64,000 nt of DNA from Candidatus Nanoarchaeia archaeon (GCA_028713895.1 JAQTNH010000001.1:181808-245807), one strand, 5' to 3'; counted from the stretch's first letter, positions 7,568 to 41,602 are shown. Program-made: numbers and translations. Notes: generated by a model from the letters alone, not told the origin.

Positions 7568-7623
7568 AACACCAGGGCTGCATTGAATACATTTAAAAAG
7601 GGGCATTTCTTTTTTTTGGTTAT

Positions 7624-8901: not shown

Positions 8902-8912
8902 AAACCCTAAAG

Positions 8913-9782
8913 GTGATTAAAATCGTAGAACATGAAGAAAAAGTAGAAAAATTCTATACTACAGGCTCAAAAGTCAACCTGGCGGATTTTGATTCAACTG
9001 AGCTAAGAATAGACAATGAGGGATTTCTTTCATTCGGATACTGGGAAAACAAGACTGACAGATATCTTGACGCCACAAAGAGGCTGCTGAAATTTGTGAT
9101 TGAGAACAGCGAGGTAAAAGACGCGGACAGGATTTTGAATGTCGCATGCGGCTTTGGCCCGGAATCCTTTGCTTATTTTGAACATTTCAAGCCGAACGAA
9201 CTGATTGGGATTGACATAGCAAAAGTCCACACTGACTATGCGAACCTGAAAGCCAAGCAGCTTGGCGTGGCTGACAAGGTAAAATTTGTGCACGGAGACG
9301 CGGTTGCGCTGGATTTTCCAGACAGAAGTTTTTCGCACATACTCGGGATAGAAGGGCCTGCGCATTTCAACACGCGCGAAAAATTCTTCAAGTCAGCAGG
9401 GCGGGTGCTCAAGCAGGGCGGAGAACTTCTGCTTACTGACGTCATACTCGGAGAAAAATTCAAAGCATGGAATCCCCTGCACCAGACTGTCCTCAGGGTG
9501 GGGGCAAAGGGATGGGTTGTTCCGATGGCAAACGGGGTCAAGGAAGCCGCTTACAAAAAGCAGCTTGAAGATGCAGGATTTGAAATTGTTTTTTTGAAAA
9601 AAATAGGGGACAAAGTGTTCCCAGGATACAGCAGGAGCTTTGATTCGGAAGTCATACAAAAGCACACAAAGTGCATGGGGTTCATGACTTCAATGGGATT
9701 CACGTTCATAGGAAAGCTGCTCGGATGGCTTTACAAGAAAGGGTTCATAGAATACGTTTACGTGAAGGCGCGGAAGAAATAA
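8913..9782 (+). CDS. Class I SAM-dependent methyltransferase, RebM-like (sugar O-methyltransferase-like)
   Basis: FGYWE motif, SAM-binding loop ILNVACGFG, DAVALDFPDRSF. A GTG start is inferred. It is a paralog of 27671..28522. Confidence 0.75.
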   Translation: MIKIVEHEEKVEKFYTTGSKVNLADFDSTELRIDNEGFLSFGYWENKTDRYLDATKRLLKFVIENSEVKDADRILNVACGFGPESFAYFEHFKPNELIGIDIAKVHTDYANLKAKQLGVADKVKFVHGDAVALDFPDRSFSHILGIEGPAHFNTREKFFKSAGRVLKQGGELLLTDVILGEKFKAWNPLHQTVLRVGAKGWVVPMANGVKEAAYKKQLEDAGFEIVFLKKIGDKVFPGYSRSFDSEVIQKHTKCMGFMTSMGFTFIGKLLGWLYKKGFIEYVYVKARKK

Positions 9783-9787
9783 TTCAT

Positions 9788-10594
9788 TTAGAATTCGTCA
9801 AGCGGGCTTTTGATTTTTTTCAACTCAACATTTGAGACGTGAGTATACCGTTCTGTCGTATTGAGCGATGAGTGCCCAAGCAGGGTTTGTATCTTTCTTA
9901 TGTCAACCCCGTTTTCCAGCAGGTGCGTGGCGTACGAATGCCTAAGTGTGTGCGGGTGGACATTTTTTGTGATGCCTGCGCGCGCTGCAGCGAGAGTCAC
10001 GACTTTTTGTATTGCGCGCTTTGAGAGCTGCTTTCCTTTTGTTGCAAAGATGTATTCAGACGGATACTTTCTGTTCTGCAGATACTCTTTCAGATTTGTG
10101 ATGAATTTGTCAGAAAGAAGAATCATCCTGTCCTTTGCGCCCTTGCCGCTGCGCACCCATCCGGTTTTTTCCTCAAGCTCCAGGTCATTTATCTTCATGT
10201 TGATGCACTCGTTCAGGCGGATGCCTGTTGAGTAAATGAATTCAAGCATGAGCCTGTGCTTTTTGTTTTCAGTTAATTCAATCATGCGCCTGACTTCGTC
10301 TTTTGTGAGAACAACAGGCACCTGCTTTGGAATCTTAGGCGTCTTTATTGCAAAAGCTTTTTTCAGGACTTCGTTGTAAAAGAAAATCAGGGATGATTTT
10401 GCCAGGGCAAGTGTTGCATTTGAAACGCTGCGGCCAATCATGTCAGAAAGATAATTGCGGACATCGTTTTCATCAACAGCAACGGGCTCTTTTTTTATGA
10501 ATTCAAGAAACTTGCGGTTGTAGAACAGATAGGTTTTGATTGTTTCATTGCTCAAGCCGCGCAGGCGTAGTTCGGTTTCAAGCTGTTTTAACAT
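9788..10594 (-). CDS. xerA: Tyrosine site-specific recombinase (XerA/XerC/XerD family)
   Basis: Catalytic R...HxLRH...Y signature: HTLRHSYATHLLENGVDIRKIQTLLGHSSLNTTERYTHV. Confidence 0.85.
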   Translation of the reverse strand: MLKQLETELRLRGLSNETIKTYLFYNRKFLEFIKKEPVAVDENDVRNYLSDMIGRSVSNATLALAKSSLIFFYNEVLKKAFAIKTPKIPKQVPVVLTKDEVRRMIELTENKKHRLMLEFIYSTGIRLNECINMKINDLELEEKTGWVRSGKGAKDRMILLSDKFITNLKEYLQNRKYPSEYIFATKGKQLSKRAIQKVVTLAAARAGITKNVHPHTLRHSYATHLLENGVDIRKIQTLLGHSSLNTTERYTHVSNVELKKIKSPLDEF

Positions 10595-10697
10595 GCCAAA
10601 TTAAACGAACTTTTGGATTATACATGTTTTGGTTTATACAAAATTTTATAAGTGGCGTTTTAGTAGCTTTATTTGGTGGGGTTCTTGAAAGCGTGCA

Positions 10698-11912
10698 ATG
10701 ATGAAAGACATTTATTTTTGCAAAACAGATGAAGAATGGCTCAAACATTCAGAGGAACTGGAATACCCCATACATGTTACGCCATGTTCTATAATAATAG
10801 ACTATGATGATGACAATTGCATTTACAGACAACTTGACAACATACCTGCTGTTGCACGGCTGAACCACATAAAACAGCTTGGCATTGCAAATGAATGCAG
10901 GAATCTGGCAGGCAGCGGCCAGACGCGTTATATTCATTCGCTGATTTGTGCAACAAAAATTGATTATCTGGCGCAGATGAATAACCTTAACAGAGAGCTC
11001 GCAGTCACAGCTGCAATGATGCATGACATGGCAACAACGCCGTATTCTGACTCGGTTTCAAAAAAACTTAAATTGGGCGATGAAGCGAATTTTGAAAGCG
11101 TGCTAAACAGCAGCACTGGGGCGCTTGCATTCCTGGACAAGCATAACATTTCAAAAAAAGAGCTCTGCGACCTTGTGACAGGAAAGGATAAATCCGTGCT
11201 GGGGCAGCTTGTCAGCAGCAAAGGCTCGATTGATGTTGACAGGTGGAGTTATACCATATATGACGCCCAAAGAATTGGAAAACTTTCTTCTGTACTCGGC
11301 AACCCTTATTGCCCAGACCCGTTCAAGTCAATGAAAATTATTGACAACACTGTTGTGTTTGAAGATGTCAACGAAGTACGAAAGTTCCTTGAGACAAGAG
11401 TGTACATGTTTGAATCTGTTTACAGGAACGACGAGCTCATGGCAAAGGAAGCTTTTGTCGGCGAGCTGGCAAAGGAAATGTGGGAAAAAGGGATTATTAA
11501 TAAGTCAAATATTTTCAGACTGGATGACAGCCAATTCGAAAGTTTATGCCACAGATATAATGAAGAACTTTCAGCCCGAATATTCCATGTAGGATATTTT
11601 GACAGTTATGGCAAACTGCCTGCCGGTGAAGAAGAGGTACGGCAATTCATGGCAGGCATCACAGACAGGCCTTTTGTCGTAAAAAAAGGGTTCTCCATGA
11701 ACCCCGCCACAGACACGCCTGTGCTGTTTAAGGGAAAAGTGAAGCCGTACAAAGAGATTGATATGCCGCATTCCAACAGCTTACAGATGAGAGCGGACTC
11801 TTTCAAATATACTGCAGTGTACGGGTTTGAAGAGGACTCAGAACTTGCAAAAGCTGTTCGCAAGGCAGAGGCAAAGTTCGGAAGAGTGAATGCCCCGACA
11901 GAAACTAAATAA
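10698..11912 (+). CDS. HD-domain phosphohydrolase, dNTP triphosphohydrolase (Dgt/SAMHD1)-like
   Basis: H...HD...D architecture: RYIHSL, MMHDMATTPYSDS (compare LLHDIGHxPFSH) and DVDRWSYTIYD (compare DxDRxDYLxRD). Confidence 0.6.
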   Translation: MMKDIYFCKTDEEWLKHSEELEYPIHVTPCSIIIDYDDDNCIYRQLDNIPAVARLNHIKQLGIANECRNLAGSGQTRYIHSLICATKIDYLAQMNNLNRELAVTAAMMHDMATTPYSDSVSKKLKLGDEANFESVLNSSTGALAFLDKHNISKKELCDLVTGKDKSVLGQLVSSKGSIDVDRWSYTIYDAQRIGKLSSVLGNPYCPDPFKSMKIIDNTVVFEDVNEVRKFLETRVYMFESVYRNDELMAKEAFVGELAKEMWEKGIINKSNIFRLDDSQFESLCHRYNEELSARIFHVGYFDSYGKLPAGEEEVRQFMAGITDRPFVVKKGFSMNPATDTPVLFKGKVKPYKEIDMPHSNSLQMRADSFKYTAVYGFEEDSELAKAVRKAEAKFGRVNAPTETK

Positions 11913-11935
11913 GTTCTGACAATCTTGATTTTACC

Positions 11936-12409
11936 ATGATAATCAGAACAGCAAAAATAAAAGATTTGCCAGCTGTGCTTAAACTTGATTTAATGCTGAA
12001 AAAAGACCAGAACAGATACAACAAGAAGTATTTTGCACTTGCAGGTGAAAAGAGCCTGGTAAAAGAAACAAAAAAGTTCCTGAAAGGAAAACTAAACAGC
12101 AAAAAATCGCGCATTTTTATTGCAGAAGCGAATGGAAAAATAATAGGAATCTGCATGGCTGAACTTGAAAAGCGGCCGCCAATATTCAAATACAGGAACA
12201 ATGGTTTTATTGAATCAGTTTATGTCCTGCCTGTGTTCAGAGGAAAAGGAATTGGAACCCTGCTGCTCAAAAGCGCAATTAAATGGCTGAAAAAGAACAA
12301 GATGTCTTTTATCACGCTTGCAGTCCATGAGCAAAATATTCCTGCAATAAATGCCTATAAAAAATCCGGATTTGTTAATTTTTTCAATAAAATGCTGAAG
12401 GTGTTATGA
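11936..12409 (+). CDS. GNAT-family N-acetyltransferase
   Basis: Acetyl-CoA-binding motif VLPVFRGKGIGTLLL and a conserved NIPAINAYKKSGF tail. Confidence 0.8.
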   Translation: MIIRTAKIKDLPAVLKLDLMLKKDQNRYNKKYFALAGEKSLVKETKKFLKGKLNSKKSRIFIAEANGKIIGICMAELEKRPPIFKYRNNGFIESVYVLPVFRGKGIGTLLLKSAIKWLKKNKMSFITLAVHEQNIPAINAYKKSGFVNFFNKMLKVL

Positions 12410-12410
12410 A

Positions 12411-13091
12411 ATGTTGGACTTTGACAAGCTGATTGACGAGCACCTGAAAAAGGAAAATCGTCCGAAAGGGATTGGGAGATATTATCCGAGCGAAGCAGGA
12501 ACCTGCATGCGAAAAATCTGGTACTCGTACAAGTTTCCCTCTGAAGTTGAGCCAGAGCTTCTCAAGATTTTTGAGATGGGAAACATAGTCCATAATTTTG
12601 TTGTTGAAGTTCTGAAGAGCGAAAAAGTCAAGGACATTGAGCTTCTGGAATCCGAATTCCCGTTCAGGGAAGAGGTTGAAGATTTCATGATTTCCGGCAG
12701 GATTGACAATCTCATCAAAATTAAGGCGAGCGGGAAGATTTACCTGGTCGAGGTCAAGTCAACGAAGAGCATTGATTATGTAAAGGAAGCTTCACCGCAC
12801 AATGTGCAGCAGCTCCAGCTTTACATGCACTTCACAGGGGTGCACAACGGCTTTTTGCTTTACATCGACAAGTCAAACCTGAAGACAAAGACTTTTGAAA
12901 TAGAGTACAGCGAGGAAGAGGCAAAGCGGATTCTTGAGCGCTTCAAGTCGCTGCACAAGCACCTTAAAGAAGAAAACCTTCCCGAAGCAGAGGGCAGAAG
13001 CCACAAGGAAATCAAATGGATGTGCGGCTACTGCGAATACAAGGACAGGTGCCACACAGACACGCCAAAGGCAAAACACGAAGAGGAATAA
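12411..13091 (+). CDS. Cas4-like PD-(D/E)xK nuclease with a 4-Cys cluster (DUF83/RecB-like)
   Basis: D...EVK (GRIDNLIKIKASGKIYLVEVKS), QxxxY (QQLQLYMHF), an N-terminal Cys (GTCMRK) and a C-terminal CGYCEYKDRC. No cas genes are nearby. Confidence 0.7.
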   Translation: MLDFDKLIDEHLKKENRPKGIGRYYPSEAGTCMRKIWYSYKFPSEVEPELLKIFEMGNIVHNFVVEVLKSEKVKDIELLESEFPFREEVEDFMISGRIDNLIKIKASGKIYLVEVKSTKSIDYVKEASPHNVQQLQLYMHFTGVHNGFLLYIDKSNLKTKTFEIEYSEEEAKRILERFKSLHKHLKEENLPEAEGRSHKEIKWMCGYCEYKDRCHTDTPKAKHEEE

Positions 13092-15363: not shown

Positions 15364-15389
15364 TCCTTTTGTTTTCTTATTTTTGTTTT

Positions 15390-15589
15390 TTTTCACTCTG
15401 AAAAAGTTTAAAAGGCAGTATCCTCTCAATTTAAGACAGGGAAATGTTGATGGTTGAGGTGGAAAAATGAATTCTAAGGGAGAGAGCAGACTAAATTTAA
15501 TTCTAAACAGGTTCGGAGCGTCAAAAGCATCCGCATCACTGAAGATTTTCCTCGCACTCATCATTTTCGGCATAGCGTCAGCTTTCCTC
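15390..15589. repeat. Copy 1 of a ~200-bp duplicated promoter plus signal-peptide module
   Basis: Near-identical to 21856..22054. It carries the TATA box, the Shine-Dalgarno site GAGGTGG, and a first 41 codons identical between the two giant genes. Confidence 0.9.
15406..15412 (+). promoter_or_regulatory. TATA box (TTTAAAA) of giant surface protein gene 1
   Basis: AAAGTTTAAAAGG lies 55 nt upstream of the ATG. GAGGTGG at 15456..15462 is the Shine-Dalgarno site. Confidence 0.5.
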
Positions 15590-18500
15590 CTCGGCGTTGT
15601 CTTCGCAACACACAGCTATTCGCCAGCCCCGGCAACAGTTCCAAACTGGACAAGTTCATGCGGCAACAGTGACGAAGGTCCAGGACCTGGAGATGCAATG
15701 ATAAACCTGACAAAAAATATCACGCTGACAGCAACAGGCAATGACACTTCATATCTCAACTTAACGCTCCTCAACTCAACTTCAAATTATACAATCCAAG
15801 ACTTCCTCACATTCTACCCGGCAAGCACGCTTAGCTGTTTAAAATCATCAGACACTTTAATTGAATGCACCAACACAACTGCAAATGTTCTGGCAGGGAC
15901 TGGAATGACAGTCCAGTTTAATACATCAGTCAACAGGAGCAGGCTTTGCATGGCAAACGGGCTGGACATGTTTTATTGGAATATATCAACCCTGGACAAT
16001 GAAACCAGTTTTAATTCTACGATATTGATAGACAAATTTGATTCACAAAGCCCAATGCCTTCAGGCATGATGATAACATCAACCAAATACACAAACGGTT
16101 CAAATTGGTTTGTAACAAGCCCGTATGATCTAACAGTTCCAACCGGGACAGACGGGAGCGGTTCAGGAATAAACACAAGCTCATGCGTGTATACAACGAA
16201 TATGAGCGGAATGCCTACTGTATGGACTGCAGCTACGTATGCAGACCCCAACTGTACAAAAACAGGAATAACAATTGCAGACGGTGTTTTGCACCAATCA
16301 AGTTTAGCTGTATCTGACATTGCAGGCAACCGTGGCGGATCTGGCTCATTAGACATTTATGGAGACGCATTAGCTCCAACAATCACATGGAATTCCCTTG
16401 CCAGCGCATACAAATTAGGCACAATAGTCACGCTTAATGTAACAGCCGCAGACGCGGGCTCAGGAGTCAATACGTCTGCGTTCACATTTAATGTTTCCTG
16501 CACAGGCAGCTCAAACGGCTCGCTTGGCGCGCTAACATGCACGCCGGGCTTGGTTCCCAAATCAACAGAATGCACACAGGCCTGGACAGCCCCAGATGCA
16601 GTTGCAAACTGCAACATAACTGCAAACGCAACAGATGCCCTCGGGCAGACAAATACAAGCATCGCAAACCTGAACATTGACTTTGGATGCGGAGACAACA
16701 TTTCATATTCAACCGTATTAATCCATAATATAACAGGATGCACCTCAGGCGCTCTTTTCATCAATACAAGCAATTTAGTTCTTGACTGTGACGGATATGC
16801 AATAGATGGATACGATGTCACAGAATCAGGCATTGAAATATCCCCAGGAATCGAAAATGTAACAATCCAAGACTGCATTATTTGGGGTTACACTGACACA
16901 GCCGGCATCGTGGGCAACGGACTTGGCAGCAGCGACGGCAACATAAGCATAGTATCCAACACATTTTATAGCAATGGACAGGCTATCCTCTTGAATGCAA
17001 CTTCAGCAGGAAGCAATGATTATGACATAAACAGCAATATAATCTACAACACAACAGATGCTTCAAAGGATGCAATCTATGTTGGAAGTTCGGGAAACAT
17101 CTACATAGACCACAATGAGATTTATAGTGCTGCCAGCACAGGAATATCTGTGCGTTCATCAAGCGGAACAATCTCAAACAATGTAATAAACAACACTCTT
17201 ACAGGATACGGCATTTCAACAAATGCATTCGCAGGAGTTATAGAACTCAATAATGTTTCGTATGCAGAACGCGGAATCAATTATTTTGCATCAGGCCCCA
17301 TTGCGAACATTACAAACAACACTTTGAATATCAATGACTACGGATTATACATCTCTTCAAGCATGGACATATCAGTATGGCATAATAATGTATATAATAA
17401 TACTATGAATGTTCTTTCAACTAGCCCCATTGAATTGTCCTATAGCAGCGAAGGAAACTACTGGGGACACGATGGATGCCCTGTGTTCAGTGCAGGGATA
17501 GATTCAAACTCAGCAACTGTAATCGACAGCTACGCTTACAATACATCAAGCGGATGGCTGACAACAACACCAGCGTTCTGCGCGCCGCAAATAATTACAT
17601 TTGCAGATGTTTTCAGTGGCTTTGCATATGCGAACATAGGAATCGGAGAATCAATGGCGATGCCATTTGTTCTGGATGTTTATGTTAACATAACAAACAC
17701 AACACCAGCATGGGTGAATCTTACAGGAGCTGGCGGCAGTTTGTGCATGGAGAGCTATGCGCCTAATGTAATGCTCAGCTATGAGGATTTGGGAGACGGC
17801 CCTGTATTCAACGCAGAGTGCACATTAAACAAAACAATACTTGCAACGCTGGGTCCACAGCATAACCTGACTGCGGTGGCATACTATGTGTCGTCACCAG
17901 CTATAACAAACACACAAAATTTCACATTGAATTCTGACTTTGAACGCCCAGTTATGAACTTTGGATGGTGGGACACAACAGGCGGGGACGGAACTCCTGT
18001 AAAATTTGTAAGCCCTGAGAACATGTTTAACAGGCAGGACATATTTTTCTCGCCAACAGACAATGCCGTACGGATAAGAGTTAATGTAACAGACAACAGC
18101 GTAGTGTCGTATGTGGAAGCAAATATGACTTCGCTTGACAGCGCAATGGCACTGACAGGCGGAAACTGCAGCGGAGTTGTAAACCTTACAGGTGTCGGCG
18201 GAAATTTCTGGGAATACAACTGCAGCCTTGGAGGCTTCAACAGAACGTTCATACAGGATGTCCTGAACGGAGGCACATTCAGCCCGGTATTCGAAGGACA
18301 GACAGACGTACAGATAGCAGCACATGATGTATTCGGAAACCCGACTGCAATAGCGTATAATACTTCTGAAATCACACCAGTGGAATGCGTGGGATACGTA
18401 GAGGGGCAATGCATGTCACTTGTTACACCGATAGTCATACATGACATTGAAGTGATGGGGCCGACAAGCATCAGCGCCATACATGACCAGATAGAAGAAT

Positions 18501-21500
18501 TTTCTGGCTGCATATGGGGAGCAAACTGCAGCGCATGCGGACCAGGAGAAACCCCTGAGACAGACGGATGTTATGAAGCTGCACAGCTTTGCTTCCTGTT
18601 TGGTTCGCAGACAACAAACTTCAGCAATGTTGCAAATTTCTCGGATGTAAACTTTTCGGTTGAGATGCAGGTAAACATGTCATGCCTTGAAGAAGCTGGA
18701 GGAATTGTGACTGACATACCCATGCCGACTGGACACACAACAATGATGAAAGTGAATTTCAGCAGCATTGACTTCAACAGCCAGGAGACTGCTGGAAAAC
18801 TTGCACAGCTTCCAGAAAACCTCAACGTGTACATAAGCCCGGCAGGAACTTTCGGGGACTCGTACATTATGCTGAACTCAAGCTACTTTGAGATGCTGAA
18901 TGCTTCCGCAACAATCGTGTTCTATCACTTGCCATTCATATCAGCGCCGTATGTTTACGGAATTGGGGGCGCAGTGACTGCCACACCGACAATAACATGG
19001 GCGCCATTCAATGATGACTTGTGGGACGGACGACCTGCTGGAAACCTTACATTCAATGTAGGTGGGTTCTCAGGATACGAGATAACAGACTCAATAAAGC
19101 CGACAGTGGTGATTGATGCGCCGGCAGCAGGCACAAACCTGACTGTTAACACAACATGGCTTAACATGACTTTGAACGGGACAGGCACACAGATAAGCAA
19201 TGTGCTTGTGTATGATGGAGCAGTACTTAAATACAATTACACAGCAAATGAAAGCATGTGCCTGAATGTAACGCTCGGTTCAGAGCTGTTCTTCTGCAAC
19301 ATTTCGCTTACAGGGCTGGCAGACGGAACGCACACACTGACTGTCCAGGCATTTGACTTTGGCGGAAACGAATCGCCGGGAAACAACAACACCACAACGC
19401 GGGCATTTATAATTGACTCGAGTGCGCCAAACATCACGATAACAGCGCCTGTGTCAAATGCAGTGCTTAACGCAGCAATGCTTCCGTACAATATAACCGG
19501 AACAGCAGCTGACAATTATGTGGGCATATCAAATATAACGTGGTATATAGACAATGCTGAACAGGGCACAGTTGACATGTCGCCACTGCCATTGTGGTGG
19601 ACAAGCTGGAACCCCTCAGACGGAGTGTACAACATTACTGCGCAGTCATGCGACTATTTCAGCAACTGCGCAAATGCGACAGCAGTAACACTGATAACAG
19701 TTGATGCGCTAAAACCAAAAATCTCAATAACCTACCCGACAAACAACCTTAACATCTCGTCATCAACGCTGGTAGTGAACACAACGACAAACGAGACAAA
19801 CCCGAACAGGCTTCTTGTTTATGTCAACGGTGCATTAACAAACAACACAACATACTCAAGCGGGGAACAAAACAACACAATTGTGCTTACCCTTGCAGAC
19901 GGAACATATGTTGTGTATGCAACTGCAACAGATACGGCAGGAAACTCCAATACAACATCCAATTACACTGTAATGATAGACACGACTGCGCCGACACTGA
20001 ACATTATAACACCAACTAATAATTCATATCAAAACCGCAACAATACAATAGTTAACTGGACAGTGAACGATACAAACTACAACTACACTTACATTGAACT
20101 TTACAATTCAACAGACGACCTCGCAGCGAACGGCACAGTCCCGTATACGTTTGGGCCATACACTTATCCGAACTATATAGTAAATTGGACAGATGTGCCA
20201 GACGAGGTTTACAGGCTTGTATTAGTTGCATACGACATAGTGGCAAATAACAGGACAGAAACGGTTTATAATATTACAGTTGACACGACTGCGCCAAAGA
20301 TTGCGGTATCGTACCCGGCAAACAACAGCAACTCAACCAGCTCGACTGTGACAATAAATGTGACAACAAACGAAACAAATGCAAACTCAATGAAACTGTA
20401 TGTTGGTGGCTTGCTTGTCAACACGACAAGTTACACGGCAGGAAACAACAAGGTAAAAACATTCACTGTCAGCATGGCAGACGGCAACAGAACATTCTAT
20501 GCGAATGCAACAGATTTGGCTGGGAACTACAATGCAACAGGAACGTATTACATAATAGTTGACACGACTGCGCCGGCAATGAGCAGCATATTTGCTGATA
20601 CAATCACAAATGAAAGCGCAGACATACACGTGACAACAAACGAGATAGCAAATTGCTCTGTTGATTTCGGAACTGATACGTCATACGGCTCGGTTGCAAG
20701 CTCAGTAAGCGGAAGCGGAGCGCTAAGCCTCGCAATTCCAAGCGCAGCCCAGGGAACATTGTATTATTACAGATGGAACTGCACTGATGTCTACGGAACC
20801 AGCGGAGTAAGCGCAGGATACACGTTCACAACAGCGAACTACCAGACAGATACGATTGTCAACACAACAACCACAAACATGACATTCAACTTTACAGAGG
20901 ACGGAACCAATACGACAAATGCAGGCGTTGAGATTTCGCTCAATGAAACAATTGATGCGACTGTCAAAATTGCAAAGGGAATAGCCCCGACTGCAAATTT
21001 CAGCGCGTCCGGCATAACAGGACTTGGAACGTACTACACAATTGAGTCAGATGAAATCAACAGCACAAATGCCGAGTGGCTGATGATAAAGCTGTATTAT
21101 GAGGACTCGCAGGTGCCAATCGGGATAAATGAATCCACACTCAGGCTGTACTGGTACAACACAACAAGTTCAGCATGGGAAATCATAACACCTGGCGGAG
21201 TTGATACAGTAAACAACTATGTCTGGGGTAACACAACGCACTTCAGCGAGTACACAATCGCGGGAGCAGCAGACACAGAGGTAACAGCACCAACATCACC
21301 AGGCGGCTCAAGCGGAGGAATACCTTCTGCGGGACTGACTCATGAAGTCAATCTTGACGTGCAGGTGACATACACGCAGGCAGGAATGGCTGTGAAGGAC
21401 AAGATAAACTTCACTCTTAACGGAGAGAAGCACGTGCTAACCCTTTCGTCAATGATGATTGACCAGATTGTTGTTGACATAAGCTCGCTTTCGCAGAGAA

Positions 21501-21826
21501 TAACAGTGGACATGAACACGCCAAAAGCAGTTGACCTTGACGGAGACGGGATAAACGACCTTGAACTGAAACTGACAAAGATAATAGCTGGACGGGCGGA
21601 TTTGACGCTTACAAAGATTACAGCGACAGGAGCTGCAGCAGAGCCTGAAGAGGTTACAGTTGAAACGCCGGCAGAAGTTCCGACAGAAGAACCGCAGCCA
21701 ACAGTGACTGTAATCAGCGAAGAAATCAAGGCAGTTTCAGGCAACTACGGGATATACATTGTAGCTGCAATAGCCTTGCTGGGAATCATAGCAGTAACGT
21801 ATTACGTGTTCTTCAGAAAGAGGTAA
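15467..21826 (+). CDS. Giant cell-surface protein (2119 aa): signal/anchor N-terminus, parallel beta-helix (NosD/pectin-lyase-like) repeats, Ig-like repeats, fibronectin-III-like domain, Ca-binding DxDGDGxxD loop, C-terminal TM anchor
   Basis: Hydrophobic N-terminus. Beta-helix repeats are visible as NVINNT / NNTLNIN. About 5 tandem ~95-aa repeats end in DTTAP. The C-terminus is YIVAAIALLGIIAVTYYVFFRKR. The protein is full of N-x-S/T sequons. Confidence 0.9.
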   Translation: MNSKGESRLNLILNRFGASKASASLKIFLALIIFGIASAFLLGVVFATHSYSPAPATVPNWTSSCGNSDEGPGPGDAMINLTKNITLTATGNDTSYLNLTLLNSTSNYTIQDFLTFYPASTLSCLKSSDTLIECTNTTANVLAGTGMTVQFNTSVNRSRLCMANGLDMFYWNISTLDNETSFNSTILIDKFDSQSPMPSGMMITSTKYTNGSNWFVTSPYDLTVPTGTDGSGSGINTSSCVYTTNMSGMPTVWTAATYADPNCTKTGITIADGVLHQSSLAVSDIAGNRGGSGSLDIYGDALAPTITWNSLASAYKLGTIVTLNVTAADAGSGVNTSAFTFNVSCTGSSNGSLGALTCTPGLVPKSTECTQAWTAPDAVANCNITANATDALGQTNTSIANLNIDFGCGDNISYSTVLIHNITGCTSGALFINTSNLVLDCDGYAIDGYDVTESGIEISPGIENVTIQDCIIWGYTDTAGIVGNGLGSSDGNISIVSNTFYSNGQAILLNATSAGSNDYDINSNIIYNTTDASKDAIYVGSSGNIYIDHNEIYSAASTGISVRSSSGTISNNVINNTLTGYGISTNAFAGVIELNNVSYAERGINYFASGPIANITNNTLNINDYGLYISSSMDISVWHNNVYNNTMNVLSTSPIELSYSSEGNYWGHDGCPVFSAGIDSNSATVIDSYAYNTSSGWLTTTPAFCAPQIITFADVFSGFAYANIGIGESMAMPFVLDVYVNITNTTPAWVNLTGAGGSLCMESYAPNVMLSYEDLGDGPVFNAECTLNKTILATLGPQHNLTAVAYYVSSPAITNTQNFTLNSDFERPVMNFGWWDTTGGDGTPVKFVSPENMFNRQDIFFSPTDNAVRIRVNVTDNSVVSYVEANMTSLDSAMALTGGNCSGVVNLTGVGGNFWEYNCSLGGFNRTFIQDVLNGGTFSPVFEGQTDVQIAAHDVFGNPTAIAYNTSEITPVECVGYVEGQCMSLVTPIVIHDIEVMGPTSISAIHDQIEEFSGCIWGANCSACGPGETPETDGCYEAAQLCFLFGSQTTNFSNVANFSDVNFSVEMQVNMSCLEEAGGIVTDIPMPTGHTTMMKVNFSSIDFNSQETAGKLAQLPENLNVYISPAGTFGDSYIMLNSSYFEMLNASATIVFYHLPFISAPYVYGIGGAVTATPTITWAPFNDDLWDGRPAGNLTFNVGGFSGYEITDSIKPTVVIDAPAAGTNLTVNTTWLNMTLNGTGTQISNVLVYDGAVLKYNYTANESMCLNVTLGSELFFCNISLTGLADGTHTLTVQAFDFGGNESPGNNNTTTRAFIIDSSAPNITITAPVSNAVLNAAMLPYNITGTAADNYVGISNITWYIDNAEQGTVDMSPLPLWWTSWNPSDGVYNITAQSCDYFSNCANATAVTLITVDALKPKISITYPTNNLNISSSTLVVNTTTNETNPNRLLVYVNGALTNNTTYSSGEQNNTIVLTLADGTYVVYATATDTAGNSNTTSNYTVMIDTTAPTLNIITPTNNSYQNRNNTIVNWTVNDTNYNYTYIELYNSTDDLAANGTVPYTFGPYTYPNYIVNWTDVPDEVYRLVLVAYDIVANNRTETVYNITVDTTAPKIAVSYPANNSNSTSSTVTINVTTNETNANSMKLYVGGLLVNTTSYTAGNNKVKTFTVSMADGNRTFYANATDLAGNYNATGTYYIIVDTTAPAMSSIFADTITNESADIHVTTNEIANCSVDFGTDTSYGSVASSVSGSGALSLAIPSAAQGTLYYYRWNCTDVYGTSGVSAGYTFTTANYQTDTIVNTTTTNMTFNFTEDGTNTTNAGVEISLNETIDATVKIAKGIAPTANFSASGITGLGTYYTIESDEINSTNAEWLMIKLYYEDSQVPIGINESTLRLYWYNTTSSAWEIITPGGVDTVNNYVWGNTTHFSEYTIAGAADTEVTAPTSPGGSSGGIPSAGLTHEVNLDVQVTYTQAGMAVKDKINFTLNGEKHVLTLSSMMIDQIVVDISSLSQRITVDMNTPKAVDLDGDGINDLELKLTKIIAGRADLTLTKITATGAAAEPEEVTVETPAEVPTEEPQPTVTVISEEIKAVSGNYGIYIVAAIALLGIIAVTYYVFFRKR
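19090..20570 (+). repeat. About 5 tandem ~285-nt (95-aa) Ig-like domain repeats inside giant gene 1
   Basis: Repeating (D)TTAP linker followed by V/I-rich beta strands, e.g. PKISITYP..., PTLNIITP..., PKIAVSYP... Confidence 0.6.
20840..21640. repeat. Copy 1 of an ~800-bp duplicated C-terminal module
   Basis: About 90-95% identical to 26628..27420. It encodes TANYQTDTIVNTTTTNMTFNF...LRLYWYN...VDLDGDGINDLELKLTKI. Confidence 0.85.
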
Positions 21827-21862
21827 GCCTCCTTTCTTTTTTATTTTTTTATTATTTTCACT
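21827..21862 (+). terminator. Oligo-T tract (archaeal-type terminator) after giant gene 1
   Basis: TCCTTTCTTTTTTATTTTTTTATTATTTTCAC directly follows the stop codon. Confidence 0.4.
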
Positions 21863-22054
21863 CTAATAAAGTTTAAAAGGGAGCATGCTCTATTCTAAAG
21901 ACAGGGAAATGTTGATGGTTGAGGTGGAAAAATGAATTCTAAGGGAGAGAGCAGACTAAATTTGATTCTAAACAGGTTCGGAGCGTCAAAAGCATCCGCA
22001 TCACTGAAGATTTTCCTCGCACTCATCATTTTCGGCATAGCGTCAGCTTTCCTC
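21856..22054. repeat. Copy 2 of the duplicated promoter plus signal-peptide module
   Basis: See 15390..15589. The TATA box is at 21872..21878. Confidence 0.9.
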
Positions 22055-25000
22055 ATCTATGGAGTTTATGCCATAGACTTAAGGCACATCAGCGATGGCA
22101 ATGCAATCGCAGCAGATAACGAGACAATCGAAATTCCTGCGGAAGAAATTGCAGCCGAAGTTTCAGAAGCCACAGCACTTCCTGAAAAGCCCCAGGCAGT
22201 ATTTGCTGACAGGCCGGGTTTAACGCCGAAAGAAAAAGATATCAATGCAAAAAACACATTTGAAAGAAAATTTCCGTCTTTAGCTAACGAGTATATCCTG
22301 TTCCTTAAAAGCCCGATGAAGGTTGAAGGGCCATCCATTGCGTCTGTAACAAATTCAGAACAGCTGCAGAAAACAATGTCTGACAGGGGAATCAAGACGT
22401 ATAATACAATACCTGAACTCAATGCAATCATTGCCTATGTGCCTGATTCGCAAATTGACTCAGTAAATAGGATTCCTGGAGTGGAAAATGCTGAGCCCAT
22501 CAAATATTTTCATTCCCTGCTTAATGTAAGCATACCCACAATAAATGCGGATGATGTATGGGATTTGGGATACAATGGCACAGGCGTTGATGTCTGCATA
22601 ATTGACACGGGCGTTGACAAGTGGCATCCAAGCATCAAGCAGGCAACCGCGTCTGCAGATTTCACAACACACGACTGGTGCATTGACCTGGGCTTACAGA
22701 ATCATGGCTATGACGAGGGAGTATTCCAGTCAGTTGTCGGCTCAAACAGACAGTTTAACATGTCGCTGAATGTAACAAACTCAACAATGAACTGGCTTGA
22801 AGTCGGAGTGACATCTTATTACAACGGCAACTGGAGCGGTGATGAGCAAAGGTATGACATGACAATCTTTTGGCCAAATAACACAAAAATAAATGACACA
22901 AATTCCATTCCAAATGCAAATATGCGCATTGACGATGACTTAAATTATTGGGCGGTTCTGAACCTTTCAATCGGCAGTGTAACCGGGCTTTATACAATCC
23001 AAATAGATGAGACAAACATCGGAACCAGCATGGATTACCCGCTTGTTATTTGGGGCTCAAATGTAACATGGCTGTACACTAACTTTTACGAATACAGCGG
23101 TTACATCTGCGATACATTTAACACAACATACTCAAATTTTAATCCATACGAATCAACTGACAGCGTCTTTAAGGACAGGCGCGCATTCAACAACATTGTT
23201 GCAAATGATGACGCTGGACACGGGACTCATGTAGCAGGAACAGTAGCAAGCAACAACACAACTTATGAAGGAGTTGCGCCCGGCGCAAACTTGTATATTG
23301 CAAAAGCTCTTGACATGTACGGGATGGGTACAACACCAGGAGTTATAGACGCAATACTCTGGTGCCAGAGCAAAGATGTTGATTTAATAAGCATGAGCCT
23401 TGGAGGAGCTGCAGGACAGGGATGCAATGATTCTGAAGTTGTAATTTTGGACTCTGTGGTTGCAGACAATATGCTCCCAATTATTGCCGCGGGCAATGAA
23501 GGAGAACATGGCGCAGTTACAATAGGCTCGCCCGGCTGTGCAAGAAATGTTTTGACAATCGGCGCAGTTAATGACAGCGATGTTATAGCATGGTTCTCAA
23601 GCCAGGGGCCGACAAACGACACAATGCCACGAATAAAACCTGAAGTTGTTGCGCCTGGTGTAGCAATCTATTCAACAATACCAACAGGCAGATGGGACAA
23701 TATGCAGGGGACATCAATGGCAACACCGCATGTTGCGGGTTTGGCTGCCCTGATCAGGCAGGCGCATCCAACATGGACGCCTGGACAGATTAAAGCGGCA
23801 ATCATAAATTCCGCCAACCAGACAAAAGTTGGGTTTGGAGCGCATAATACTACATATGGATATGGAAGAGTTGATGCACTTGAAGCAGTCAATGACACGT
23901 GGGTGGCATCAATAAATATGACAAACGACACAATAGACAGCACTTTAAAAATGAATCTTACAGCTGCAAAAAACCTGAAGGTAACAATATACTGGGAGGA
24001 AAACGCATCAGACAGCCACAGCAGGATATATCTTAACCTGACAAACAGCAGCGGTGATATTGAGGACGAATCAAGTGACAGAAATGAAACAATACAGCTG
24101 GCTGCAGTAGCTTCAGCAGCAGCTGGCGAATACCACATAAGAGTAATCGGGGACCATGTACACGGTACAAAGATTGTCTGGATTGCAACAAATGTACCTT
24201 TATCCGAATCTATACCTCCTGTGCTGACGATTGTTTCGCCGCAGAACGCAACTTACGGAGCGTCTGTTGAGTTCAATGTTTCCACAAACGAGGCAGCAAG
24301 CTTATGCGTTTCCAGCCTGGACGGGGCAGCAAATGTCTCGATGGGCAACACTTCGTTAACTGCATGGAACTACACAAGCTCAGGCATGACAAGCGGCCTG
24401 CACAATGTAACGTTCTACTGCAATGACACTTCAGGAAACTGGAACCTTACACCTGTACGCTATTTCACATCTGACATCAGTGCGCCGGTTGTAACAATAA
24501 TATCACCGCAGGACACAACTTACGGAAAGACAGTTGCATTCAATGTTTCCACAAGTGAAGCGGCAGCGTGGTGCAACATCACAATGGATGGAATTGTAAA
24601 CATTTCGATGAGCAACACTTCAGCAACGTCATGGGCATACACAAATTCCAGCATGATAGACGGAGGGCACAATGTGACTTTCAGGTGCAATGATTTGTAC
24701 AACAACACAGGCACAAATCTGACCAATTTCACAGTTGATGCGGTTGAACCTTTGATAACAATTGTTGTGCCACAAAACACAACTTATGGAATCAACGTCA
24801 CATTTAACATAACCACAAATGAAGCAGCGTCAGCCTGTAATTTCAGCCTGGACGGGGCTGCAAATGTCTCAATGACAAATATTTCAACAACTGCGTGGGG
24901 ATACTTTAAGACAAACATGGCTGAGGTGCTGCATAACCTAAAGTTTTACTGCACTGACCTGTACGGCAACACAAATATAAGCGCCACTGTGTACTTTTCA

Positions 25001-27601
25001 GTCAACACGAGCTTCTTAGCAACAATAACATATCCTGCAAACCAGCCGTATAATACTGTAAACATGACTGCCAATGTCTCCACAACTGCAAATGCAGATG
25101 TGTGCCTGATAAGCATTGACGGCGGAGCAAATGCTTCGATGGGCAATTCAACTCCAACAGCATGGAACTACAGCATGATAGACTTGTCAGAAGACGTACA
25201 CAATCTCAGCGTGTGGTGCAATAACAGCGGCGGAACCCTTGCAACAACAGCAACAGGCTCATTCACAATTGATTTGACAGAACCGATGATAACGATGGTT
25301 GCGCCCGGAAACACAACGTACGGCACAACTGTGGTATTCAATGCAACAACAAATGAAGCAGCGTCATGGTGCAACTTCAGCCTGGACGAAACGACAAATG
25401 TGAGCATGACCGGAGCTGCAGCTTCATGGGCATACACAAATTCAAGCATGACAAATGGAGGGCACAATGTGACTTTCTACTGCAGCGACTTGGCAGGGAA
25501 CGCCAACAACAGCGCAATAAGAATTTTCACAGTTGATGCGATTTTACCTGTGATAACAATAAATTCCCCTGCAAATACGACATACAATACAACCACGACT
25601 TTGTTTAATGTTACAGCAAACGAAAATGCTTCATGGTGCAGGTATAGCCTGGACGGGGCTGCAAATGTCTCAATGACCAACAGCTCGATGACATCATGGT
25701 TTAACTCCACCACTGTAGCAGAGAACAACCATAATGTTGTGTTCTACTGCAGCGATGTTTACAGCAACATCAATTCTACAACTGCGCTGTACTTCATCAC
25801 AGACACAACAAAGCCGGTGATAGCAATAGTCTCGCCAGGCAACACAACGTACGCCAACACAACAATCTGGTTCAACATAACAGTAACAGAAACGCGCCCG
25901 GACAACTGCGTCTACAGCCTGGACGAAGCAGCAAATGCGACAATGACAAGGAGCGGAAGCGCATGGAATGCTTCAAAGAATGACTTTAGCGGAGAAACAC
26001 AGCACAACATAACATATTACTGCAATGATACAGCCGGAAATGTGAATGGCAGCGCAATGAGATACTTTGTAGTTGATACTGTCGCGCCGCGCGTTACGAT
26101 ACTCTTGCCGCTGAATAACACAAAATTCAATAACCAATATGTCAATTTCAGCGTAAATGCGTCTGACGCCAACATTTTACAGCTCAAGATGATAGAAGAC
26201 AATTATGTAGCGCAGACAGTGAATCTTTCCAGCTCAGGAATAACTAATGTAACACTGGACATCGGCCCTGGAACGCATGTAATAAAAGCGAATGTCACGG
26301 ACAGCGCAGGAAATTACAATTTAACTGACAGCACCATAGTTTTGATGGATACCATAGCGCCGGTAATGTCAGGCATCAGCGAAGAAGACATAAATGACAC
26401 CTGGGTAACGTGGCTGGTAACAACAGATGAAAATGCAACCTGTTTTGTAGAGTATGGCACCGACACAGGATATGGAAGCACAACAGGGAGTTCAACTGGA
26501 GAAGGTTCGCATGAACATACTTTAGCTGGGATTGATGCAGCAACGCTTTACCACTACAGATGGAACTGCACTGATACATACAACAACAGCGCAGTAAGCA
26601 GCGATTACACATTCATAACAGCAAACCACCAGACAGATACGATTGTCAACACAACAACAACAAACATGACATTCAATTTCACAGAGGACGGAACAAATGT
26701 AACAAGTGCAAAGATTGAGATTTCGCTCAATGAAACAATTGATGCGACTGTCAAAGTTACAAAAGAAATCACTCCGACTGCAAATTTCAGCGTGTCCGGC
26801 ATAACCTTGATTGGAACGTACTACACAATTGAGTCAGATGAGATTAACTCGACAAATGCCGAGTGGCTGATGATAAAGCTGTACTATGAAGACTCGCAGG
26901 TGCCAATCGGGATAAATGAATCCACATTAAGACTGTACTGGTACAACGCAACAAGTTCAGCATGGGAATTGGTTACTCCTGGCGGGGTTGACACAGGGAA
27001 CAACTATGTATGGGGCAACACAACGCACTTCAGCGAATATGCAATCGGTGGAGCAGCAGACACAGAGGAAGTAACACCAACATCACCAGGCGGCTCAAGC
27101 GGAGGAATACCTTCTGCGGGACTGACTCATGAAGTCAATCTTGACGTGCAGGTGACATACACGCAGGCAGGAATGGCTGTACGGGATATGATAAACTTCA
27201 CTTTGAACAGAGAGAAGCACGTGCTAACCCTCACTTCAATGATGCTGGATCAGGTTGTAGTTGACATAAGTTCGCTTTCGCAGAGAATAACAGTGGACAT
27301 GAACACGCCAAAAGCAGTTGACCTTGATGGAGACGGGATAAACGACCTTGAACTGAAACTGACAAAGATAATATCTGGACGGGCTGATTTGACGCTTACA
27401 AAGATTACAGCGACAGGAGAAACAGCAACACCTGAAACAGCTGCAACTCAAGCGCCTGCAGAGGCACCAGCAGAGGTTTCTACAGAGCAGCCAACAGGAA
27501 TCCAGGCGGTTTCAAGCAACTACGGAGTATACATTGTAGCTGCAATCGCACTGGCAGGGCTTGGAGTATTGATATATTACGTGTTCTTCAGAAAGAGGTA
27601 A
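21932..27601 (+). CDS. Giant surface-anchored S8 (subtilisin-like) serine peptidase (1889 aa) with about 8 Ig-like repeats and a shared C-terminal module plus TM anchor
   Basis: S8 catalytic triad: Asp in VCIIDTGVD, His in HGTHVAGTVAS, Ser in GTSMATPHVAGLAALI. The N-terminus is identical to gene 1. Eight ~95-aa repeats each carry a conserved Cys pair. The protein is dense in sequons. The C-terminal anchor is IVAAIALAGLGVLIYYVFFRKR. Confidence 0.9.
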   Translation: MNSKGESRLNLILNRFGASKASASLKIFLALIIFGIASAFLIYGVYAIDLRHISDGNAIAADNETIEIPAEEIAAEVSEATALPEKPQAVFADRPGLTPKEKDINAKNTFERKFPSLANEYILFLKSPMKVEGPSIASVTNSEQLQKTMSDRGIKTYNTIPELNAIIAYVPDSQIDSVNRIPGVENAEPIKYFHSLLNVSIPTINADDVWDLGYNGTGVDVCIIDTGVDKWHPSIKQATASADFTTHDWCIDLGLQNHGYDEGVFQSVVGSNRQFNMSLNVTNSTMNWLEVGVTSYYNGNWSGDEQRYDMTIFWPNNTKINDTNSIPNANMRIDDDLNYWAVLNLSIGSVTGLYTIQIDETNIGTSMDYPLVIWGSNVTWLYTNFYEYSGYICDTFNTTYSNFNPYESTDSVFKDRRAFNNIVANDDAGHGTHVAGTVASNNTTYEGVAPGANLYIAKALDMYGMGTTPGVIDAILWCQSKDVDLISMSLGGAAGQGCNDSEVVILDSVVADNMLPIIAAGNEGEHGAVTIGSPGCARNVLTIGAVNDSDVIAWFSSQGPTNDTMPRIKPEVVAPGVAIYSTIPTGRWDNMQGTSMATPHVAGLAALIRQAHPTWTPGQIKAAIINSANQTKVGFGAHNTTYGYGRVDALEAVNDTWVASINMTNDTIDSTLKMNLTAAKNLKVTIYWEENASDSHSRIYLNLTNSSGDIEDESSDRNETIQLAAVASAAAGEYHIRVIGDHVHGTKIVWIATNVPLSESIPPVLTIVSPQNATYGASVEFNVSTNEAASLCVSSLDGAANVSMGNTSLTAWNYTSSGMTSGLHNVTFYCNDTSGNWNLTPVRYFTSDISAPVVTIISPQDTTYGKTVAFNVSTSEAAAWCNITMDGIVNISMSNTSATSWAYTNSSMIDGGHNVTFRCNDLYNNTGTNLTNFTVDAVEPLITIVVPQNTTYGINVTFNITTNEAASACNFSLDGAANVSMTNISTTAWGYFKTNMAEVLHNLKFYCTDLYGNTNISATVYFSVNTSFLATITYPANQPYNTVNMTANVSTTANADVCLISIDGGANASMGNSTPTAWNYSMIDLSEDVHNLSVWCNNSGGTLATTATGSFTIDLTEPMITMVAPGNTTYGTTVVFNATTNEAASWCNFSLDETTNVSMTGAAASWAYTNSSMTNGGHNVTFYCSDLAGNANNSAIRIFTVDAILPVITINSPANTTYNTTTTLFNVTANENASWCRYSLDGAANVSMTNSSMTSWFNSTTVAENNHNVVFYCSDVYSNINSTTALYFITDTTKPVIAIVSPGNTTYANTTIWFNITVTETRPDNCVYSLDEAANATMTRSGSAWNASKNDFSGETQHNITYYCNDTAGNVNGSAMRYFVVDTVAPRVTILLPLNNTKFNNQYVNFSVNASDANILQLKMIEDNYVAQTVNLSSSGITNVTLDIGPGTHVIKANVTDSAGNYNLTDSTIVLMDTIAPVMSGISEEDINDTWVTWLVTTDENATCFVEYGTDTGYGSTTGSSTGEGSHEHTLAGIDAATLYHYRWNCTDTYNNSAVSSDYTFITANHQTDTIVNTTTTNMTFNFTEDGTNVTSAKIEISLNETIDATVKVTKEITPTANFSVSGITLIGTYYTIESDEINSTNAEWLMIKLYYEDSQVPIGINESTLRLYWYNATSSAWELVTPGGVDTGNNYVWGNTTHFSEYAIGGAADTEEVTPTSPGGSSGGIPSAGLTHEVNLDVQVTYTQAGMAVRDMINFTLNREKHVLTLTSMMLDQVVVDISSLSQRITVDMNTPKAVDLDGDGINDLELKLTKIISGRADLTLTKITATGETATPETAATQAPAEAPAEVSTEQPTGIQAVSSNYGVYIVAAIALAGLGVLIYYVFFRKR
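24210..26350 (+). repeat. About 8 tandem ~270-290-nt Ig-like repeats, each with 2 conserved Cys, inside giant gene 2
   Basis: Repeating pattern P(V/L)(I/V)T(I/M)VSPxNTTYG...NV(S/T)TNEAA(S/A)xC...SLDGAANVSM...HNVTFYC(N/S)D... Confidence 0.7.
26628..27420. repeat. Copy 2 of the duplicated C-terminal module
   Basis: See 20840..21640. Confidence 0.85.
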
Positions 27602-27640
27602 AACCTCCTTTCTTTTTTATTTTATTTTTATTGCAAAATA
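27602..27640 (+). terminator. Oligo-T tract after giant gene 2
   Basis: AACCTCCTTTCTTTTTTATTTTATTTTTATTG. The same sequence follows gene 1. Confidence 0.4.
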
Positions 27641-41050: not shown

Positions 41051-41602
41051 GTGAACGGTATGGTACAACAGTTTAGATTATCCAAAGTTTCGGGAAAATT
41101 TATTGAGATACTTCTGTGGCTTATCGGGCTAAATCGCGAAGAAATCTATGTTTCAGAGCTAAGCAAGGAACTAAAAATGTCAAAGTCAACAGTCATAAAA
41201 TGGCTTGAGGAATTAACCAAATGGGAGCTTGTAACCGAACGAAAGCGCGGAAACATGCATTATTACAGGATAAATGGAGAAAACCCAATTATAAAGCAAT
41301 TCAAAATCCTGCAAAGCGTTTCTGAATTGACTCCGCTCATGAAAAGCTTGAAAGGTATGGCTGAAGTTTATTTGTTTGGCTCTTCAGCGCGAGGCGAGGA
41401 CAGGCCAGACAGTGATTATGACATTCTTGTTGTAACCAAACTTAATTCAAATGAAGTCTTTAAGAAACTTAAGAATGAGGACAGACTCAAAAACAGGAAA
41501 ATAAGCCTGCTTATAGTAAAACCCTTTGAATATGCAGACATGGCAAAACATGATCCTGCACTTTACCAAAGGATAGAAATAGACAAAATCAGGCTGGTAT
41601 AA
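41051..41602 (+). CDS. Minimal nucleotidyltransferase (MNT) with N-terminal wHTH
   Basis: NTase motif LFGSSARGEDRPDSDYDILVV. Confidence 0.75.
   Translation: MNGMVQQFRLSKVSGKFIEILLWLIGLNREEIYVSELSKELKMSKSTVIKWLEELTKWELVTERKRGNMHYYRINGENPIIKQFKILQSVSELTPLMKSLKGMAEVYLFGSSARGEDRPDSDYDILVVTKLNSNEVFKKLKNEDRLKNRKISLLIVKPFEYADMAKHDPALYQRIEIDKIRLV

Follow-up and report, generated by a model that had tools for sequence, protein, structure and literature searches.

Bacterial cell-envelope proteinases of the subtilase (S8) family carry spacer domains and C-terminal anchors, and their characteristic insertion is a PA domain placed between the catalytic His and Ser. Their anchoring relies on LPXTG and sortase or on other anchors. 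Among archaea, STABLE of Staphylothermus marinus sits on a tetrabrachion stalk. Lactocepin PrtP, the cell-wall-associated pyrolysins, streptococcal C5a peptidase and membrane-anchored SAM-P45 are large surface subtilases that serve peptide supply or act on host proteins, and the archaeal surface-held enzymes STABLE and pyrolysin are thought to yield peptides for the cell (PMC9549277). Within DPANN archaea, the SPEARE proteins of Nanohaloarchaeota are giant surface proteins that already join a serine-protease region, adhesion domains and a transmembrane segment near the C-terminus, and degradation of the host S-layer has been proposed for them (PMC6642349). Here we describe one gene in a 64,000-nt stretch of DNA, referred to as the window, from Candidatus Nanoarchaeia archaeon (GCA_028713895.1, JAQTNH010000001.1:181808-245807), which NCBI places in Archaea; Nanobdellati; Nanobdellota, i.e. 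DPANN. Its uninterrupted open reading frame (ORF) encodes a predicted pre-pro-subtilase with a stalk and a membrane anchor, and we regard it as reasonably likely, from the sequence, that the product is an S8A cell-envelope proteinase that digests external or host proteins. An identical protein is present in public records (MDD5181911.1/MDD5239045.1), named 'S8 family serine peptidase [Candidatus Nanoarchaeia archaeon]' and located on contig JAQTPB010000006.1 of GCA_028713185.1 and on a second, 956-kb contig that carries MDD5239045.1; the S8 annotation of the gene is already public. The nearest named S8 homologues had pointed to a Methanosarcinales/ANME origin, which was rejected in favour of Nanoarchaeia on the strength of this exact match.

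The original prediction had considered this manner of presenting a protease unusual. That judgement does not stand, as large subtilases tethered via spacers and a C-terminal anchor form a long-established class (lactocepin, cell-wall-associated pyrolysins, SAM-P45, STABLE; PMC9549277). What distinguishes the present protein from known tethered subtilases is a predicted jelly-roll insertion between the catalytic Asp and His, together with the sharing of sequence cassettes among surface genes. Beyond what had been predicted, the protein adds this insertion, a predicted post-catalytic jelly roll, a predicted propeptide and a leader/anchor cassette held in common with a paralog. No description of the Asp-His jelly-roll insertion or of the cassette sharing was found in the open-access text of the literature.

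Assignment to the described groups was considered in turn. A lactocepin or C5a-peptidase type was rejected, with no match to the PA domain (PF02225), no LPXTG at the C-terminus (NF040553, the LPXTG-anchored serine peptidase model, reached 61.7 bits against a cut-off of 1400) and an insertion that is predicted to be a jelly roll and lies between Asp and His. STABLE is bound to the S-layer (PMC9549277) and, unlike the window protein, has no stalk and transmembrane segment of its own; homology searches revealed no close sequence relation to STABLE or pyrolysin. SPEARE proteins, which reach 8553 aa (5998 aa in Ca. Nha. antarcticus), possess laminin-G domains and a conserved cytoplasmic region resembling type III restriction enzymes (PMC6642349). 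Membership of that group was likewise rejected, since only FRKR, a cytoplasmic tail of four residues, follows the transmembrane helix here, and neither laminin-G nor a restriction-enzyme family was matched in Pfam or NCBIfam.

The catalytic domain is well defined. PF00082 spans aa 216-645 and covers the whole profile (1-288/288; E 1.9e-54, 185.4 bits against a cut-off of 21.8). The catalytic triad had been predicted to be intact, and the sequence bears this out, with IIDTGVD at aa 223 (D225), HGTHVAG at aa 430 (H430) and GTSMATPHVAG at aa 593 (S595) each occurring once. Aligned with subtilisin BPN' (44% identity over 212 aa by BLASTP), D225, H430 and S595 fall on D32, H64 and S221 without substitution, and the oxyanion-hole Asn, N522 in AAGNEG, aligns with the AAGNEG of BPN' (N155). 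The Asp-His-Ser order within DTG, HGTH and GTSMA motifs corresponds to subfamily S8A. In an AlphaFold2 model of the head, the catalytic core was predicted with high confidence (pLDDT, the per-residue confidence score, mostly 80-98). Judged from its sequence and model, the protease looks catalytically competent.

No protein came closer in sequence (E about 1e-47) or in fold (Foldseek E 6e-37) than Tk-SP of Thermococcus kodakarensis (PDB 3afg, 9ues). It combines an I9-type N-propeptide, an S8A catalytic domain and a C-terminal β-jelly-roll, an arrangement also predicted for the head of the window protein. Its solved chains match the head only, from the propeptide to the jelly roll, and offer nothing for the immunoglobulin (Ig)-like stalk or the transmembrane anchor. 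The top Foldseek match of the head is the pro-form, ProN-Tk-SP (3afg), and the I9-like propeptide predicted in the model would imply zymogen activation. Downstream of the catalytic domain, the phmmer alignment to Tk-SP reaches aa 700, into the Tk-SP jelly roll, Pfam PPC (PF04151) gives E 2.2e-5 (25.7 bits against a cut-off of 25.9), and AlphaFold2 predicts an all-β structure with high confidence.

The principal departure from Tk-SP and BPN' lies within the catalytic domain. In phmmer searches of PDB and in the BLASTP alignment to BPN', aa ~200-238 and ~424-645 are aligned and aa 239-425 are left unmatched. This segment of 187 aa replaces the 14-residue 46-59 loop of BPN', an excess of ~173 residues, and the corresponding Asp-His loop segment of Tk-SP likewise has 14 residues. 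Subtilisins vary at this loop more than at most others (PMC9549277). Asp and His are 205 aa apart in the window protein and 28-45 aa apart in 107 of its 112 nearest S8 homologues. As a separate observation, P0088, an S8 homologue outside the clade delimited below, shows an Asp-His spacing of 383 aa in a regular-expression search; the value may reflect a further large insertion at this position or may be an artefact of the way the motifs were located.

Modelled alone with AlphaFold2 from a 16-sequence alignment, the insertion forms eight β-strands (pLDDT 74.5; pTM, the predicted TM-score, 0.76). Among its best Foldseek matches in PDB are SubHal, Tk-SP and KP-43, all subtilases with a jelly roll; furin, CspB, GOLD domains and collagen-binding domains follow lower down. 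In hhalign, the insertion also matches the post-catalytic domain of its own clade (73.6% probability, E 2.9e-5). A Pfam match of the isolated insertion to SLFN helicase is sub-threshold and surely spurious. With moderate confidence, based on these models, we interpret the insertion as a second jelly roll placed inside the catalytic domain. Interrupted subtilases have precedents: TPPII, a cytosolic exopeptidase complex with no stalk or anchor, has an insert of ~200 residues between Asp and His, the same site as in the window protein, and the insertion of CspB lies between His and Ser. In CspB (PDB 4i0w), an intracellular or spore protein that retains its prodomain and has no stalk or anchor, a jelly roll interrupts the subtilase domain, rigidifies the enzyme and aids autoprocessing, the jelly roll of Tk-SP confers thermostability, and the P-domain of furin is needed for folding (PMC3567191). 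By analogy with Tk-SP, furin and CspB, the two jelly rolls of the window protein most likely brace and stabilize an exposed enzyme, and the inserted domain may, in addition, influence entry to the cleft.

A profile of the insertion, built from the window protein and four relatives, was searched against 1.84 billion cluster representatives and matched 17 proteins at E <= 1e-3, 15 of them at E <= 1e-10, the window protein included (237 bits, E 7.8e-66). All 15 strong matches carry the insertion in the same position, and the Asp-His gap measures 142-211 aa in the 16 sequences in which both motifs could be located, the seventeenth being a fragment that ends before the His. We defined the clade by an Asp-His spacing of 140-210 aa with DF..DWC / NRYD / YPNGT / WGSNVT motifs; the window protein shows both the spacing and the motifs. 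All members of full length begin with a leader and end in a transmembrane segment with a basic tail. As far as these sequences indicate, the insertion marks a very small and rare archaeal subtilase clade. Four proteins with the insertion, P0123, P0124, P0134 and a 1521-aa protein encoded at locus L004 (JGI 3300005573, contig Ga0078972_1000277), have longer cytoplasmic tails with similar ends (...ELFRLK, ...GIFKLK, ...PPVFKLE), which could constitute a conserved C-terminal signal; the window protein ends in FRKR, without an ELFRLK-type tail motif.

Of the 17 clade sequences, 15 preserve Asp, His, Asn and Ser together with the motifs around them, the exceptions being the fragment lacking the His and the pseudo-protease P0134. 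P0134 and the 1521-aa L004 protein keep the whole architecture with D->S, H->E and N->D replacements, a loss of the triad which indicates that the scaffold can serve a non-catalytic role. The window protein could by extension be mainly an adhesin or structural fibre, whose subtilase head acts as a binding module with proteolysis irrelevant or lost, and the Csp pseudoproteases set a precedent (PMC12880746). We consider this very improbable, given that the catalytic residues are intact both in the window protein and in most of its clade and that, according to the model, the propeptide is retained.

In the protein as a whole, the Kyte-Doolittle scan detected only two transmembrane-like segments, at aa 21-50 and aa 1863-1887. 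The first belongs to a leader that would act as a signal peptide, with predicted cleavage, or else as a signal anchor. The second is the C-terminal helix, followed by FRKR, and the tether to the cell envisaged in the original prediction is recovered at this position; the protease is, from its sequence, almost certainly extracytoplasmic and C-terminally tethered. The same prediction had counted eight Ig-like repeats on a glycosylated stalk. Eight domains are real, with the qualification that the eighth is divergent, so that the arrangement is better described as 7 + 1: seven repeats of ~89 aa, each with two conserved Cys, are 39-55% identical to the first, compared with 24% for the eighth. They were delineated by motif scan and MAFFT, self-BLAST having given nothing usable, and Pfam matches are weak (Big_13, 27.2 bits; Big_7, 24.6 bits; both at about their cut-offs). 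As for the glycosylation, N-X-S/T sequons are strongly enriched, numbering 104 in the protein against 36.5 ± 5.2 in 2000 shuffles (z about 13), a density of 5.5 per 100 aa versus 0-0.9 in the other, non-surface proteins of the window; glycosylation itself keeps the standing of a prediction from sequence.

The stalk continues through a fibronectin type III (Fn3)-like domain into a stalk-base domain, which is also found in P0121 and P0125, and a G/S/P linker then leads to a membrane-proximal anchor module that can be aligned with modules at the C-termini of P0001, P0003, P0004, P0121, P0125, P0130 and P0132. No Pfam or NCBIfam family was matched by the stalk-base domain or by the anchor module. 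A large protein search with the 324-aa C-terminal region returned one match, P0121, and one with a 94-column profile of the anchor module also returned one, P0141. No sortase gene was seen adjoining the S8 gene among the neighbours scanned.

The Thr/Pro-rich linker, transmembrane helix and short basic tail resemble archaeosortase-type signals (PGF-CTERM, ArtA), a likeness that would fit an enzyme released from its helix by an archaeosortase-like enzyme or by autolysis and left lipid-linked or free. SPEARE proteins offer a parallel, as their extracytoplasmic portion runs separately from the transmembrane portion in gels (PMC6642349). Release is nevertheless hardly credible here: the helix is not preceded by PGF, PEF or any other known motif (sequence ...AVSSNYGVYIVAA...), NCBIfam gave no match to a sorting-signal model at E <= 0.01, and no archaeosortase was seen among the window ORFs scanned. 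The protein was accordingly rejected as an archaeosortase/PGF-CTERM substrate (Table 1).

The leader and the stalk base with its anchor belong to a cassette shared with the gene immediately upstream, a tandem paralog of 2119 aa that NCBI names 'Ig-like domain-containing protein' and that has 5.4 sequons per 100 aa. The first 47 residues of the two proteins are 91% identical, and the last ~334 residues of the paralog agree with the end of the S8 protein at 82% identity. In nucleotide sequence, 21833-22057 corresponds to 15368-15592 with 92.5% identity, including the 99 nt upstream of the ATG, and 26555-27632 to 20768-21856 with 85% identity over a stalk-base/anchor cassette of ~1.1 kb. Between these two stretches no DNA-level similarity was found, and the Ig regions are ~26% identical in amino acid sequence. 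The shared 5' region contains elements to which promoter, terminator and ribosome-binding roles can be provisionally ascribed from their sequence (Table 1).

A similar arrangement occurs in a Candidatus Woesearchaeota metagenome-assembled genome (MAG; CAYGZP010000001.1, locus L006), recovered as a single locus by a genome-contig scan with a 5-sequence insertion alignment; the same kind of scan with the single window protein found no relative. There, an insertion-bearing S8 gene (1142 aa, 7491-10919) is followed directly by the gene for a 592-aa surface protein (10991-12769), and the last 460 nt of both, encoding the anchor module, linker and transmembrane helix, are 94.8% identical. From its sequence, this cassette sharing is an independent repeat of the pattern in the window. 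At L004 (5474-21328), on a contig that carries PolD and PolB and is therefore archaeal, four surface-protein genes form a tandem array in which the active S8 protease P0125 is flanked by a 1498-aa protein with a similar anchor module and by the 1521-aa pseudo-S8, which keeps the insertion. Anchor modules are alike within genomes and divergent between them (21-44% identical), which indicates homogenization within each genome; we infer that gene conversion or recombination keeps a common chassis under different heads.

The tandem placement of the S8 gene with surface genes of the same anchor cassette, at three independent loci, would also suit a maturase or sheddase that processes the cell's own surface proteins (the 2119-aa paralog, S-layer or pilin precursors) rather than one that feeds it, and dedicated processing subtilases do exist, among them kexins, lantibiotic peptidases and CspB (PMC9549277, PMC3567191). 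Such a role appears improbable to us: the estimated stalk of 35-45 nm would hold the head far from membrane-proximal cleavage sites, the closest relatives are degradative subtilisins, and no conserved cleavage motif was identified in the paralog.

For the envelope proteinase that we favour, we propose the following mechanism. The leader would carry the protein across the membrane, and the I9-like propeptide would aid folding of the catalytic domain before being removed autocatalytically, a cleavage that would also detach the head from the N-terminal hydrophobic segment. The mature enzyme would then be retained by the single C-terminal transmembrane helix with its 4-residue cytoplasmic tail. 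From anchor to head would run a rod of 11 predicted β-rich domains (eight Ig-like, one Fn3-like and two uncharacterised) bearing most of the 104 sequons; if extended, at an estimated ~3.5-4 nm per domain, it would attain the length given above and probably hold the head beyond the cell's own envelope. The head would be a D-H-S subtilase with two jelly rolls, one post-catalytic as in Tk-SP and the other inserted before the catalytic His. Proteins within reach, whether environmental or on a host surface, would be digested to peptides for a cell with reduced biosynthesis. Such a role is consistent with what is described for DPANN archaea: many biosynthetic pathways are missing from them, and proteases have been suggested as their source of amino acids and large surface proteins as their means of meeting hosts (PMC6792436). 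Reports of extracellular S08A peptidases in DPANN MAGs also exist (PMC8561730).

The same enzyme might instead be specialized for host contact or attack, opening the S-layer of a host archaeon for attachment or uptake. This explanation overlaps with that of an envelope proteinase and differs from it in target and purpose only. The lineage lends it some plausibility, and the suggestion of an episymbiont in the original prediction agrees with the placement of the organism in Nanobdellota. The long stalk, and a neighbouring paralog with an adhesin-like β-helix and Ig-like head on the chassis that the two share, would suit a set of tools for contact. Published proposals include degradation of the S-layer by a tethered serine protease (PMC6642349) and interaction with hosts via large surface proteins (PMC6792436). 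Weighing on the other side, no toxin, pore or laminin-G domain was found in the protein with Pfam and NCBIfam, its nearest subtilases in sequence (Tk-SP, subtilisins) have broad specificity, and the sequence gives no indication of specificity. We therefore consider a dedicated attack enzyme unlikely, though not far-fetched.

Several observations also weigh against the favoured interpretation of an envelope proteinase. The Pfam Inhibitor_I9 match is sub-threshold (E 0.13; 13.3 bits against a cut-off of 21.2), and the hydrophobic core of the leader is long (22 aa), making signal-peptidase cleavage uncertain. The model of the insertion is of moderate quality (pLDDT 74.5 alone and 40-77 inside the whole-head model), its Foldseek values are modest (E 6.5e-5 and weaker, TM-score about 0.3) and its hhalign probability is only 74%. 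To these are added the loss of the triad in P0134 and its L004 counterpart, and the lack of any peptide-transporter or glycosylation gene beside the S8 gene among the neighbours scanned. Finally, the sequence would suit nutritional and host-directed proteolysis alike.

A broader proposal, which is speculative and on balance rather unlikely, would treat the Asp-His jelly-roll subtilases as an undescribed S8A subfamily confined so far to DPANN or DPANN-like archaeal contigs. The insert would be a substrate- or glycan-recognition or gating module directed against host envelopes, and interchangeable heads (protease, pseudo-protease, β-helix adhesin) would be recombined on a genome-specific chassis.

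Table 1. Positions of the predicted features of the S8 gene, its paralog and its 5' region, numbered from the first nucleotide of the window
Feature	Coordinates	Strand	Residues (aa)	Basis and remarks
Upstream tandem paralog, β-helix + Ig-like head	15467..21826	+	2119 in total	Beta_helix, Big_7, Big_13 (Pfam)
Shared 5' control region	21833..21931	+		Matches 15368-15466, in front of the paralog, at 92.5% identity
Oligo-T tract, possible terminator of the upstream gene	21833-21858	+		Sequence only
TATA-like TTTAAAA	21872-21878	+		Sequence only
Shine-Dalgarno-like GAGGTGG	21921-21927	+		Sequence only
Whole ORF, predicted pre-pro-subtilase with stalk and anchor	21932..27601	+	1889 in total	Uninterrupted
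N-terminal leader	21932..22072	+	1-47	Basic n-region, 22-aa hydrophobic core ending VYA (hydropathy)
Propeptide, predicted I9-like β-α-β fold	22283..22507	+	~118-192	AlphaFold2 secondary structure, Foldseek
S8 catalytic domain, N-terminal part	22532..22645	+	201-238	Pfam, phmmer, BLASTP; Asp225 codon 22604-22606
Inserted β-jelly-roll (predicted)	22646..23206	+	239-425	Split alignments to Tk-SP and BPN'; AlphaFold2; Foldseek; hhalign
S8 catalytic domain, C-terminal part	23207..23866	+	426-645	His430 23219-23221, Asn522 23495-23497, Ser595 23714-23716
Post-catalytic PPC-like / Tk-SP-like β-jelly-roll (predicted)	23900..24190	+	~657-753	Pfam PPC, Tk-SP alignment, AlphaFold2
Eight tandem Ig-like domains	24209..26347	+	760-1472	Motif scan, MAFFT, Pfam; 62 N-X-S/T sequons
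Fn3-like domain	26348..26629	+	1473-1566	Weak Pur_ac_phosph_N match, E 0.0015; aligns with the paralog
Stalk-base domain, probably β-rich	26630..27046	+	1567-1705	Nearly identical in the paralog; ends ...NYVWGNTTHFSEYAI
Membrane-proximal anchor module, DLDGDGxxD loop	27134..27415	+	1735-1828 (~94)	Alignment with C-terminal modules of other proteins
Thr/Pro/Ala/Glu-rich linker	27416..27517	+	1829-1862	Sequence reading
C-terminal transmembrane helix and 4-residue basic tail FRKR	27518..27598	+	1863-1889	Hydropathy scan, sequence; no PGF, PEF or other known tripeptide before the helix, sequence ...GIQAVSSNYGVYIVAA...

The remaining genes near the S8 gene are ordinary and include an MnmA-like protein, a DEAD helicase, methyltransferases, a tyrosine recombinase, a SIMPL protein and a Mg-type P-ATPase. 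The recombinase (9788-10594, minus strand) combines Phage_integrase and SAM-like domains, and a PD-(D/E)XK or Cas4-like nuclease is encoded at 12411-13091 (plus strand). Between 38000 and 50000, the GC content falls to 36-38%, compared with 42-47% elsewhere in the window, and most ORFs are short and without Pfam families; this stretch may be an island. It contains, at 41051-42075, a toxin-antitoxin-like pair of a helix-turn-helix nucleotidyltransferase and a HEPN protein. Just beyond it, a 303-aa ORF (50570-51481, plus strand) matches PF02906, the C-terminal domain of the [FeFe] hydrogenase large subunit (E 1.2e-39), which is notable in a DPANN archaeon with a small genome, and a 690-aa T2SSE-family ATPase of the type IV pilus or archaellum type lies at 57886-59958 (plus strand).

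These results leave the basic picture as it was: the tethering of subtilases is familiar, and an S8 annotation of the gene already existed. With their reduced biosynthesis, DPANN archaea are believed to depend on other cells, and their surface molecules are almost uncharacterised; the protein described here is a concrete, tractable and, by prediction, probably active candidate for peptide acquisition or for work on host envelopes. The insertion beside the catalytic His provides a clean marker of its clade and a natural experiment on how β-barrels stabilize or gate subtilases. That neighbouring genes with unrelated heads carry near-identical leader and anchor cassettes suggests a modular evolution of DPANN surface proteins driven by recombination and, if the broader proposal of interchangeable heads were true, modular head exchange would let episymbionts diversify the surface with which they make contact.

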